A DNA stretch of 41,102 nucleotides from Promethearchaeota archaeon (GTDB taxonomy: Archaea; Asgardarchaeota; Lokiarchaeia; Sigyniarchaeales; SOKP01), in contig JAFGGO010000021.1 in the NCBI GenBank assembly GCA_016930515.1, forward strand, positions 1 to 41,102, in the 5' to 3' direction. The notes below the pieces were generated by a model, which saw only the letters and a program-made list of their open reading frames with translations, had not been told where the DNA came from and ran no database searches. The position numbers and the translations under genes are program-made. This document shows, in pieces, positions 17,340 through 21,890 of the stretch. Within the stretch, counting starts at the first letter, position 1. Each line of letters opens with the position of its first letter.

Positions 17340-17795
17340 TTAAAATCGTTCAATTGATAAGTATTTTTTTTGTCTTAAAAATATTACACCGATGGAACGA
17401 TCTCTTGCCTTTCTTCTTAGGAGCTGGTCGTTAGTTGCTAAAAAAACGCGAATATTTTTTTCTTTCAATTCAACAACTTTTCGAACGAGAAAATCATCCG
17501 TTAGTTCGTCATTATCTTTTATGCTGTCGTCAATAATCACATCGTAATCTTGAGATCTTTTTTCTAAATAAGACATTCCCGCTTGAAATTGTGCTTGAAA
17601 CTTAGTTGATCGCGGTTCCCTCGCTTTTTTAGCTTCTAATTCGCAAAAAATTTGTTTAAAAATAATGAATTGTACTTTCCCTTCCATTTTATTGCAAATT
17701 TCGTTAAAATAATCTATTTTAAACTGAAATGGTAGTAGGATGAAGTTGGAGTCTATAATTACGAGGTTGTTTGAGCGTGATATTTCAGAGTTCAA
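17340..17795 (-). CDS. PIN-domain protein (Fcf1/Utp23-like)
   Basis: VIIDSNFILLP...ELE...TDDFLV...LATNDQLLRRKAR...VIFLRQKKYL. TTG start overlaps the upstream TGA. Confidence 0.85.
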   Translation of the reverse strand: MNSEISRSNNLVIIDSNFILLPFQFKIDYFNEICNKMEGKVQFIIFKQIFCELEAKKAREPRSTKFQAQFQAGMSYLEKRSQDYDVIIDDSIKDNDELTDDFLVRKVVELKEKNIRVFLATNDQLLRRKARDRSIGVIFLRQKKYLSIERF

Positions 17796-18313
17796 AAAAC
17801 TTGCCGCTCTAATATTTTTCTCGTCAACTTATCAAACGCTTCTTGAACATTATTGCCTGATTTACTGGATATCTTTATATAATCGAACAGATTAAAAGCT
17901 TCCTTGAAGGATTGGGCGTAATCGTCATCTACCATGATTTCGTCAACCAAATCTAGCTTTGTACCCACGAATAAAACGGGAAGATCCGGGTCACCCTTTC
18001 GAACGATCTCAATCCATTGTTCGAGGTTGTCAAGCGTGATCGGGCGAGTGAGATCAAACATCAATAGGGCTCCTTTAGCGCCTAGTACGTAACTTTCTAA
18101 TAGAAAACGAAACCGTTCTTGCCCTCCAAAATCCCAAAGCTGAAGGGTCGCAGCGTTTCCATCGACCTCCGTTTCTTTTAAAAAAAACTCGACTCCGATC
18201 GTCATTTTCGTTTCCGCGCTGAACTTGCCTTCGACGTATCTATGAAGAAGGGTTGTTTTTCCAACGCCACCCTCCCCTGCCGTCAGTATCTTCAGAATGA
18301 ACTTTTTTGGCAT
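17792..18313 (-). CDS. Rab-like small GTPase
   Basis: GEGGVGKT, TIGVEF, LQLWDFGGQERFR, GTKLDL, ISSKSG. Confidence 0.93.
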   Translation of the reverse strand: MPKKFILKILTAGEGGVGKTTLLHRYVEGKFSAETKMTIGVEFFLKETEVDGNAATLQLWDFGGQERFRFLLESYVLGAKGALLMFDLTRPITLDNLEQWIEIVRKGDPDLPVLFVGTKLDLVDEIMVDDDYAQSFKEAFNLFDYIKISSKSGNNVQEAFDKLTRKILERQVF

Positions 18314-19156: not shown

Positions 19157-19684
19157 CTATTTTTTTTCTTCTATTTTTTGCTTTTCGGGCTGTCTTGCAC
19201 GGGAAAGCCTTATCAAGGTGTCTTTCATTGCTTTCACTTCTGCTCTGGTTGATATTTTTGATCCCTGCATGTTTTCCAATAATTCTTTTTCTGATAAACC
19301 CTTCTCAAGGAGTTGGTTAAATTTTTCTACGATATCGTCTCTATAAAAAATGTATTGCTTGTTTAAAAAAACGACTAACCAGGGTTTATTGTCTTGCTTT
19401 TCCGAAAGTTTGAACATTCTTTCTTGTACTTTTTGCATGGGTTTATTTAAATATCGAGCGATTTGTTTATCTTCGATTCGTTCTTGCATTTGTACGAATT
19501 TCATTAAACGGGATTTATAAACCAAGGGAGGAACGAAAGTAATGATATATATAATTATGGTAATAATTGTCAGCCAAATCGCCACCGTGGCGTTATAAAA
19601 AGCAATAATAATTATTACAAGTATTAATATAAGAACCCATTGGCGACCAATAGATTTAAAAAACACGACATATTTTTTTGGCAT
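19157..19684 (-). CDS. Hypothetical membrane protein (two N-terminal TM helices plus a basic, possibly winged-helix-like soluble domain)
   Basis: Hydrophobic WVLILILVIIIIAFY and VAIWLTIITIIIYIITFV, followed by a charged domain. Confidence 0.7.
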   Translation of the reverse strand: MPKKYVVFFKSIGRQWVLILILVIIIIAFYNATVAIWLTIITIIIYIITFVPPLVYKSRLMKFVQMQERIEDKQIARYLNKPMQKVQERMFKLSEKQDNKPWLVVFLNKQYIFYRDDIVEKFNQLLEKGLSEKELLENMQGSKISTRAEVKAMKDTLIRLSRARQPEKQKIEEKK

Positions 19685-19877
19685 TTATTTTCACTCGAAA
19701 AATTTTATGTATGGTTTAAAGATATTATTGATGACATAAAAAAATTATTAGGCTTTTGAAAGTTGGGGCGCAACAAAAACCTTTCTAAAACCATATGACC
19801 TTACCAAGAGAAAAAAGATAAAATTTAATTATTAGTAAATATTTGATTTATCAATTAATACTCGATATTAATTAGAA

Positions 19878-20057
19878 TAGATAAATACGATTCATAGCGT
19901 TTCGCTATAACACTGGAAACATTCCGAACCTGGAAGTTAAACTTATTTGCGTCGTCAATAGTACTGCAATTGCGATTTGTGGGAAATGTCGAACTGTAGA
20001 TTTGTCTACGGTCATAGTAAATAAGGTAAATACCCAGAATTGTTTTGTATTTATCTA
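19878..20057 (+). other. Pre-5S processing stem with bulge-helix-bulge-type motif
   Basis: TAGATAAATACGA (19878-90) pairs with TTGTATTTATCTA (20045-57). AACA (19909-12) pairs with TGTT (20041-44). There is a 3-nt bulge AAT (20038-40), a 4-bp helix CTGG (19913-16) / CCAG (20034-37), and AAA (19917-19). Confidence 0.75.
19919..20039 (+). rRNA. rrf: 5S rRNA, circularly permuted gene (canonical 3' part 19919-20000, TTTG linker 20001-20004, canonical 5' part 20005-20039)
   Basis: 5S hallmarks CATTCCGAAC, GGAAGTTAA and AGTACTG..GCGA..TGGGAAA precede CGGTCATAG..TAAATACCCAG. Helix I is ACTGTAGA (19993-20000) / TCTACGGT (20005-12). Helix II is CTTATTTGC (19942-50) / GTAAATAAG (20017-25). Helix III is CTGG-AA-GT (19930-37) / ACCCAG (20032-37). 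Confidence 0.88.
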
Positions 20058-20061
20058 CGAC

Positions 20062-20091
20062 TGCTTTTGAAAAAGCAAATATTTTTGCTTT
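20062..20091 (+). terminator. Overlapping hairpins downstream of the 5S precursor, putative terminator
   Basis: TGCTTTT-GA-AAAAGCA (20062-77) overlaps AAAGCAAA-TATT-TTTGCTTT (20072-91), with T runs. Confidence 0.4.
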
Positions 20092-20291: not shown

Positions 20292-21890
20292 ATGGCTTTT
20301 AAATTAGAAGATGTTAGTGGTATTGGGAAAACAACGGCAGATCGCTTACGATCCGCAGGAATTGACGATGTCAAAAAGTTAGCAGCTATTAGCGTCGACG
20401 ATCTAATCGCAATTAAAGGATTTAGTGAAGCTAAGGCTAATTCTCTCATAGAAAACGCGAAAAAATTAATTGAAAGTTCAGCAACGCAAACTACATCCAA
20501 AGATTTAAAAATCCAGAAAGAAACACCATCTAAACTGCCGATAAAAAAAATAGAAGAAAAACAGGAGAATTCGGTAAAATCCTCAAAATCTGGCGGCGCT
20601 AAACCTCGTACTAAGATTTCATTCAAGGACGCAATTAAAAAACAAGCAGAGTGCAATATTGGTCTTGTAGGCCATGTTGATCACGGGAAGACTACATTAG
20701 TAAAAGCTCTTACTGGAGATTGGACTGACAGACATTCAGAGGAACAGGAAAGAGGAATTTCAATCAAACTAGGATATTCTGACGCTACGATCTTGTATTG
20801 TCCTTCCTGTAATCTATATTTAACAGCATATATGGCTGAAGTTGAAAGACAAAAAGGGCAATCTCGTTCTGCTTGCCCTAAGTGTGGAACAGAACTAGAA
20901 TTTAAACGCAATATTTCTTTCGTTGACGCCCCCGGTCACGAGATCTTGATGGCAACCATGCTTAGTGGTGCATCGCTAATGGATGGAGCTTGCTTATTGA
21001 TTGCCGCCGATGAAGATTGTCCTCAACCACAAACGAGGGAACACTTGGCAGCATTGAATATTGCTGGAATAAAAAGAATTATCATCATACAAAATAAGAT
21101 AGACGCCGTCACCAGGGAAAAAGCGCTTGAGAATCATAAGCAGATTAAAAATTTCGTAAAAGGAACCGTAGCTGAAGGCGCCCCTATCATACCTATCTCT
21201 GCGGTATTTGGAGCAAACCTTAACCTCATCGTAGAAGCTTTCGAAGAGATCATTCCTACACCAATACTTAAAGAAAACGAAGATTTTGAATTTTTAGTTG
21301 CTCGCTCTTTTGACATTAATCGTCCTGGTAAAGCTATAGAAGACCTCCGAGGTGGTGTTATAGGTGGATCCGTTTTAAAAGGAAAAGTCAAGATTGGAGA
21401 TAGGATAGAGATAAAGCCTGGATTACATGTAAATAACGATTATGTTCCGATAAAAACAACTGTAGTAAGTATCAGTCAAGGAAAAAACCAGTTTGAAGAA
21501 GCAAAACCTGGTGGTCTCGTTGGACTTGGAACATTGCTCGATCCCGTCCTTACAAAAGGAGATTCTCTCATTGGACAACTCGTCGGAAAGGAGAATTCGC
21601 TCCCTGATGTCATTTCTGAGATCGAGCTCGATATTCACTTGCTTGATCGCGTATTAGGAACGGAAAATCAAATTAAAATTTATGAATTGAAACATAACGA
21701 AAAGTTATTATTGGTCGTTGGGACGGAAAAAACAGCAGGTACGGTTTCAAAAATCATGAAAAATACTTATGTGCTCTCATTAAACCCTCCAATATGCCCT
21801 GCGGAGAATTTTATTTTTGCCATTTCTCGTATCATAAATAGACGTTATCGCCTCATCGGCTATGGTATTCGTGTTAATGGTCAAAAATAA
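20292..21890 (+). CDS. eif2g: Translation initiation factor aIF-2 gamma with N-terminal helix-hairpin-helix fusion
   Basis: NIGLVGHVDHGKTTL, ERGISIKLGY, CPSC/CPKC zinc knuckle, DAPGHEILMATMLSGA, QNKID, RSFDINRPG, RYRLIGYG. An extra ~115 aa precede the G domain. Confidence 0.95.
   Translation: MAFKLEDVSGIGKTTADRLRSAGIDDVKKLAAISVDDLIAIKGFSEAKANSLIENAKKLIESSATQTTSKDLKIQKETPSKLPIKKIEEKQENSVKSSKSGGAKPRTKISFKDAIKKQAECNIGLVGHVDHGKTTLVKALTGDWTDRHSEEQERGISIKLGYSDATILYCPSCNLYLTAYMAEVERQKGQSRSACPKCGTELEFKRNISFVDAPGHEILMATMLSGASLMDGACLLIAADEDCPQPQTREHLAALNIAGIKRIIIIQNKIDAVTREKALENHKQIKNFVKGTVAEGAPIIPISAVFGANLNLIVEAFEEIIPTPILKENEDFEFLVARSFDINRPGKAIEDLRGGVIGGSVLKGKVKIGDRIEIKPGLHVNNDYVPIKTTVVSISQGKNQFEEAKPGGLVGLGTLLDPVLTKGDSLIGQLVGKENSLPDVISEIELDIHLLDRVLGTENQIKIYELKHNEKLLLVVGTEKTAGTVSKIMKNTYVLSLNPPICPAENFIFAISRIINRRYRLIGYGIRVNGQK

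Follow-up and report, generated by a model that had tools for sequence, protein, structure and literature searches.

A 5S rRNA gene in permuted order, framed by a predicted splicing motif, in a Lokiarchaeia genome and in other Asgard archaea

The 5S rRNA is a universal part of the ribosome, and in archaea its gene is assumed to be in order and easy to find. The stretch of DNA analysed here (hereafter, the window) is the whole 41,102-nucleotide contig JAFGGO010000021.1 of the Promethearchaeota archaeon assembly GCA_016930515.1 (Lokiarchaeia, Sigyniarchaeales), which is 4.0 Mb long and 94% complete. Within a 607-nt intergenic gap, the window harbors a 5S rRNA gene whose two parts are exchanged, the back part being located before the front part. 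A preliminary description, made from the letters of the sequence, had placed swapped 5S landmarks at 19919-20039, and both the coordinates and the pairings were confirmed. The junction it had drawn, joining 20039 to 19919, equals the one predicted from a motif of the bulge-helix-bulge (BHB) type that it had not noticed.

Layout of the locus and identity of the 5S rRNA gene

The features of the locus are the following (position in the window, strand, description):

19157-19684, minus: gene for a 175-aa protein with no Pfam match, flanking the 5S gap
19847-19860, plus: possible archaeal TATA box (AT-rich TTTATC/TTAATA), a weak signal in AT-rich DNA
19878-19889, plus: leader arm of the outer leader-trailer stem, pairing 12/12 with 20046-20057
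19894-19908, plus: leader hairpin of 6 bp with a 3-nt loop, read from the sequence and also obtained on folding
19909-19919, plus: 5' half of the BHB, i.e., outer helix AACA (19909-19912), central helix CTGG (19913-19916) and bulge AAA (19917-19919)
between 19918 and 19919, plus: predicted 5' cut (BHB geometry)
19919-20000, plus: back part of the 5S, comprising the remainder of loop C, helices III and II (3' strands only), helices V and IV together with loops E and D, and helix I (3' strand only) (RF00001 alignment, HMM positions 36-114, permuted covariance model)
20001-20004, plus: TTTG linker of 4 nt, which caps helix I and joins the native 3' and 5' ends
20005-20039, plus: front part of the 5S, which supplies helices I, II and III with their 5' strands and loop C with its first 2 nt (it pairs fully with the back part and covaries across relatives)
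20034-20044, plus: 3' half of the BHB, i.e., central helix CCAG (20034-20037), bulge AAT (20038-20040) and outer helix TGTT (20041-20044)
between 20039 and 20040, plus: predicted 3' cut (BHB geometry)
20046-20057, plus: trailer arm of the outer stem, pairing 12/12 with 19878-19889
20065-20087, plus: T-rich tracts, a possible terminator (read from the sequence)
20292-21890, plus: gene for eIF2-gamma, on the other flank of the 5S gap

Helix I is formed by 20005-20012 with 19993-20000 (8/8 pairs), helix II by 20017-20025 with 19942-19950 (9/9 pairs), and helix III by 20032-20033 with 19936-19937 and 20034-20037 with 19930-19933 (6/6 pairs around the AA bulge), in agreement with the helices of 8 bp and 9 bp and the bulged helix initially described; after re-joining, helix IV has 6/6 and helix V 5/6 pairs. 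The 13-nt loop C and the 121-nt product that had been anticipated on joining 20039 to 19919 were reproduced, the product being a circle that measures 117 nt without the TTTG linker. Unconstrained folding of the re-ordered sequence gives the three-armed 5S shape, and the alignment with 12 canonical Asgard 5S sequences and with RF00001 revealed the conserved motifs of loops A, C, B and E.

In the genomic order, the Rfam 5S model RF00001 scores 30.8 bits, under its cut-off of 38 bits, which is what a permuted gene should give; the leader is forced into the 5' third of the model with many non-standard pairs, and a Rfam scan of the window gave no match at the gathering score. The leader was also tried as the true 5' third and rejected, its best registers (6/8 and 7/9 pairs) occupying mutually incompatible positions. 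With a sequence-only hidden Markov model (HMM) built from the 12 canonical relatives, the re-ordered sequence covers model positions 4-113 with 43.5 bits and the native one positions 36-114 with 38.8 bits, which is a modest gain; the best rotation of the circle begins at 20003-20005. Since this HMM did not resolve the junction to the base (variants that lack a few bases score higher), the placement of the junction rests on the BHB geometry and on the length of loop C. A permuted covariance model, trained without any gene of the window's genus, assigns 105.1 bits to the window and at most 32 bits to canonical 5S genes.

The window locus is the sole match of RF00001 in the whole genome, and no second copy of either 5S half was retrieved from the genome by BLAST and HMM searches. 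The conventional 5S gene that the preliminary description had proposed to look for elsewhere in the genome was not found, the only 5S-like locus being that of the window. The genome encodes uL5; the match to uL18 is weak, and this protein is probably encoded as well.

The permuted order is widely shared by the relatives. In the 135 genomes of the window's family, the search with the permuted model found it in 120, almost always in single copy, and RF00001 exceeds its cut-off in just two. The 5S genes of these two bins (L236 in G196 and L237 in G249) are in canonical order, fit the family 5S poorly and have a bacterial look; they are likely contamination. A total of 116 family genes were parsed for junction, BHB and inserts, and two family loci were left unparsed. 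In the permuted alignment, 88.9% of the cells of the 5S helices are paired (36-46% in slid registers), and double changes occur in 20 of the 29 helix pairs, far above shuffled and slid controls, with the proviso that kin are not independent. The same order with compensatory changes, which had been suggested as something to be sought in relatives, is therefore present, and the view that this is a functional gene overlooked by annotators is supported by its single copy, by its family-wide conservation and by compensatory changes in all helices. The layout is permuted and, for this reason, gene finders overlook such 5S genes. The linker that caps helix I is a Y-N-N-G tetraloop in 111 of the 116 genes, with UNCG in 72 of them.

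The bulge-helix-bulge motif and the splicing enzymes

The leader AACA-CTGG-AAA (19909-19919) faces CCAG-AAT-TGTT (20034-20044), forming a 4-bp central helix and two 3-nt bulges inside the 12-bp outer stem; both the central and the outer helix of the BHB are fully paired (4/4 each). The endonuclease EndA cleaves BHB bulges after the second base, and the ends of the 5S are for this reason predicted at 19919 and 20039. In a BHB scan blind to the 5S, this pair of cuts ranks first of 11,000, with a score of 20 against 16 for the runner-up. The motif itself has been described (PMC4731332).

The same signal is found throughout the family. Of the 116 genes, 112 have a complete central helix (4/4), and the same number (112) have all of the outer three pairs. 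Among up to 10,000 candidates, the 5S-restoring pair of cuts takes first place in 99 genes and one of the top three places in 112. The leader-trailer pairs of the BHB covary, with 93.8% of the cells paired (no more than 40% in slid registers) and five of the eight pairs doubly changed. An equivalent leader-trailer stem, differing in sequence, exists in the relatives, and a hairpin folds at the equivalent position of the leader in 94 of the 116 genes. Upstream, TATA-like hexamers concentrate 66-70 nt from the 5' cut (79 matches in this bin among the 116 genes); a scan for sigma-70 promoters, whose model is ill-suited to archaea, gave only matches at chance level.

As for the enzymes, two EndA genes are present in the genome (PF01974, 105.8 and 72.4 bits). 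As for the ligase RtcB, 34 of 36 family genomes encode it, as do four of five congeners; it was not found in the congener G004, and its gap there and in the window's assembly is probably due to incompleteness. Among the tRNA genes of the genome, 18 of the 29 ARAGORN calls contain introns, several of which are seemingly located at non-standard positions.

Some observations concern the neighborhood. Many relatives have the 5S gene no more than a few kb away from eIF2-gamma. In the window, it is located directly upstream of eIF2-gamma and on the same strand, whereas in relatives that have both genes on one contig these are a few kb apart and on opposite strands, a difference that represents a local rearrangement. 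The eIF2-gamma of the window (20292-21890) has an N-terminal helix-hairpin-helix domain (residues 5-58), followed by a lysine-rich linker and by the GTPase domain. At lower positions of the window, a gene for a Rab-like small GTPase (17792-18313) overlaps a PIN-domain gene (17340-17795), forming an Asgard-type neighborhood.

Junctions, inserts and distribution in Asgard archaea

Two organizations of the junction have been disclosed among the 116 family genes: in 85 of them it follows directly on the AA bulge in helix III, and in the remaining 31 it lies, the window included, at the start of loop C, i.e., 16-17 nt apart from the former. Leader and trailer represent the same cassette in both types, a segment of 16-17 nt being shifted from the 3' to the 5' end. 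The genes of the loop C type retain at their 3' end the 5' strand of helix III plus two bases of loop C (TC in 28 of the 31). In the eIF2-gamma tree (one gene, 27 rows), the window groups with two congeners that have the majority junction, and the grouping of all genomes with the loop C junction in one clade was rejected (p-AU 0.007). The tree indicates that the shift arose more than once. The window is alone among the 116 genes in combining a CCAG/CTGG helix III with a loop C that starts with AA, a combination that could stem from the insertion of loop C after a duplicated leader CTGGAA, together with its deletion before the terminal CCAGAA.

In other families, the registers are off by one base or the junction is located in loop B, each with its own BHB; as an example, L044 (G038, family f3) has its junction in loop B, which makes a third position, and a 4/4 BHB central helix that belongs to it. 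Wherever the junction lies (behind the bulge of helix III, at the beginning of loop C, or within loop B), the BHB has shifted along with it, and the normal 5S is restored each time.

A further feature is the presence of inserts. The 5S gene of the window contains none, and 43 of the 116 family genes are longer by 29-31 or about 60 nt, three of them with two inserts. The boundaries were set by the deletion that best restores the 5S, pairing being used only as a tie-breaker; of the 40 single inserts, 33 show a 4/4 central helix at the boundary. At least five sites are involved:

loop C: L010, L012-L014, L109, L112 and others
loop D: L015, L022, L160
helix IV: L161, L170, L171
helix I: L011, L166, L167
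loop B: L224

This suggests that most of the inserts of about 30 nt may be BHB introns, which would imply ligation on the 5S RNA; moreover, an insert in loop C leaves a terminal piece of 7 nt that only ligation would retain. In L111 (G243), 17 nt of the 31-nt loop C insert duplicate the loop B-helix III sequence of the same gene, and the insert might therefore be an intron born of a local duplication.

Among 150 genomes of the phylum, the permuted model matches 63 and RF00001 exceeds its cut-off in 51, the two sets belonging for the most part to different families. The permuted order with a terminal BHB occurs in families f1, f3, f5-f9, f11, f13, f14, f18-f20, f22, f23, f25, f26 and f30. It is found also in f4, where no BHB was resolved (L050), and in f10, whose genes (L250-L253) show, directly behind the leader, an additional hairpin element of about 30 nt that may be an intron beside the junction. 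Canonical genes occur in seven of the sampled families (f2, f12, f15, f17, f21, f28 and f29). The permuted 5S is hence widespread in Asgard archaea and not universal. In f2 (L032-L043), a sister family within the window's order, the canonical genes are often present in two or three copies, some in tandem; the canonical order was there either kept from the ancestor or regained by a reversal.

The permuted 5S is also carried by two single-contig genomes of 3,081,793 and 3,326,783 bp. It has been reported that the 5S was not predictable in two circular Heimdallarchaeum genomes of 3.08 and 3.32 Mbp (Wu et al. 2022, PMC8813620); if these are the same genomes, as their sizes suggest, the permuted order would answer that gap.

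Proposed maturation and comparison with known systems

The gene order, the folds, the BHB geometry, the conservation, the covariation and the EndA genes are established directly. The reading favored here is that the locus is probably a working 5S gene in permuted order, whose transcript would be spliced into a 121-nt ring that most likely stays closed. According to this model, a stand-alone transcript would consist of a leader of about 40 nt, the back part, the 4-nt loop, the front part and the trailer; the CTGG of the leader would oust the 3' strand of helix III and pair with the terminal CCAG, thus forming the BHB. EndA would cleave each bulge behind its second base, and 20039 would be joined to 19919 by a ligase, presumably RtcB, after which helix III would re-pair and loop C would be complete. 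The covalently closed 5S of 121 nt, with its native ends capped by the tetraloop, would most likely enter the ribosome as a ring. Judging from the sequences, transcription, cleavage and ligation very probably take place; once ligated, the RNA is likely to persist as a ring, and taking all the steps together a lasting ring appears fairly probable. The ring is favored because the tetraloop linker is conserved and bears no visible cut signal.

Several points weigh against this model. RtcB was not found in the window's 94%-complete assembly; the TTTG linker of the window sits on an A-T pair and is not UNCG; the BHB conformer is less stable, by 2.5 kcal/mol, than the minimum-energy fold predicted for the precursor; and circles of permuted tRNAs, as well as most circles of pre-rRNA, are opened again (PMC10085705, PMC10515664). 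When metagenome contigs, which are DNA assemblies uninformative on RNA, were scanned with sequence patterns, no joined form of the family 5S was retrieved, and the junction alone matched just ordinary canonical 5S genes.

The likeliest alternative is that the circle represents an intermediate and that a second nuclease opens the 4-nt linker, releasing an ordinary linear 5S whose ends are the normal ones, in the way known for permuted tRNAs. Permuted tRNA circles (PMC10085705) and the archaeal pre-16S and pre-23S circles (PMC10515664) are indeed re-linearized, tRNase Z is cited as maturing the 5' end of the Haloferax 5S (in PMC7714728), and the window linker, as said, is not UNCG. However, the prevalence of Y-N-N-G and of UNCG among the 116 linkers is the signature of a stable cap rather than of a cut site, neither a BHB nor any other conserved signal is seen at the linker, and Escherichia coli ribosomes function with a 5S whose native ends are joined via a 4-nt connector (PMC7283268), so a capped 5S is functional there. 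This outcome is considered rather unlikely.

It might also be supposed that no ligation occurs and that the mature RNA is linear and permuted like that of brown-algal mitochondria, being either cut at the BHB and left nicked, or closed at loop C by the leader, whose CTGG can pair 4/4 (with two G-U) with 19930-19933 and enclose the same 13-nt loop without joining. In most relatives all helices would be complete and a nick at the AA bulge would be the sole interruption, and an E. coli 5S opened in loop C and tethered to the 23S supports growth (PMC7283268); the failure to find RtcB in the window's assembly also speaks for it. Nevertheless, the BHB-type internal inserts in 37% of the family genes need ligation on the same RNA, the loop C-junction genes keep the 5' strand of helix III and two loop C bases at their 3' end, and the outer BHB helix covaries, so that this alternative appears improbable.

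The last possibility, i.e., a misassembly, or else a defunct relic of a tandem duplication while the actual 5S lies at another locus, could appeal to the loose similarity of the leader to a 5S 5' end (enough for the RF00001 alignment), to the incompleteness of the genome and to the frequent failure of rRNA genes to assemble, but it is very unlikely and close to refuted, given that 120 of 135 independent assemblies share the order, nearly all in single copy, that canonical-scoring genes occur only in the two bins with a poorly fitting 5S of bacterial look, that the helices covary strongly and that the locus lies near eIF2-gamma in many relatives.

On a wider scale, the evidence leans modestly towards a picture in which many Asgard ribosomes would hold a closed 5S derived from permuted genes via the tRNA splicing machinery, the junction having moved repeatedly, introns having invaded several sites, and some families having kept or regained the canonical gene. 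A spliced permuted 5S in the closest prokaryotic relatives of eukaryotes would change the view of archaeal ribosome biogenesis, and it raises testable questions on circular rRNA, on 5S introns and on the state in the Asgard ancestor of eukaryotes. The finding also offers annotation a direct fix.

The preliminary description knew of no permuted 5S rRNA gene. This holds for archaea, for which no report of a permuted 5S gene or of a 5S intron was found in the literature covered, subscription journals being mostly outside it; it does not hold in general, since Valach et al. (2014, PMC4267664) reported permuted 5S rRNAs in the mitochondria of brown algae and other stramenopiles. As in the latter, helix I is closed as a hairpin, the ends are moved and RF00001 misses the gene. 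The stramenopile mtPerm-5S, however, is organellar, has its ends at the junction of the alpha and gamma domains and yields a linear permuted product, no cut-and-join step being described, whereas in the Asgard 5S the break falls within loop C or helix III, with a BHB around it. The ends of the window gene are in loop C, unlike those of mtPerm-5S, and no such family was reported in the Rfam scans.

It is known that EndA and RtcB process the archaeal 16S and 23S precursors, from which circular forms arise (PMC10515664, PMC12918454, PMC7758197), and that in several archaea the 23S stays circular in the ribosome (PMC12918454). Those genes have a normal order with the BHB flanking the native ends, unlike the permuted Asgard 5S. 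In the cultures studied in PMC12918454, the 5S is not processed through a BHB, and the 5S circles of Sulfolobus are minor and their validation by reverse transcription PCR failed (PMC3326292). A likeness exists with the permuted tRNA genes of Cyanidioschyzon merolae (Soma et al. 2007, as cited in PMC4267664 and PMC10085705), where the 3' part comes first and the intermediate is circular; however, the tRNA circles must re-open for the acceptor end, a need that the 5S does not have.

The closest parallel in mechanism is offered by the signal recognition particle (SRP) RNA of Thermoproteus tenax, a circular RNA encoded by a permuted gene (Plagens et al. 2015, PMC4731332). In both cases, the gene of a universal RNA was thought to be missing and its ends are relocated into a conserved loop. 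In Thermoproteus, leader and trailer form a BHB, EndA cuts it and ligation restores the loop, the RNA staying circular; the same scheme is proposed here for the Asgard 5S. The SRP RNA is documented in two species and proven by RNA-seq and in vitro cleavage, whereas the Asgard 5S is a ribosomal RNA known here from its genes; the latter, unlike the former, extends over many families, with several junction positions and putative internal introns. The mechanism is already known; its use on a ribosomal RNA gene, as proposed here, is not.
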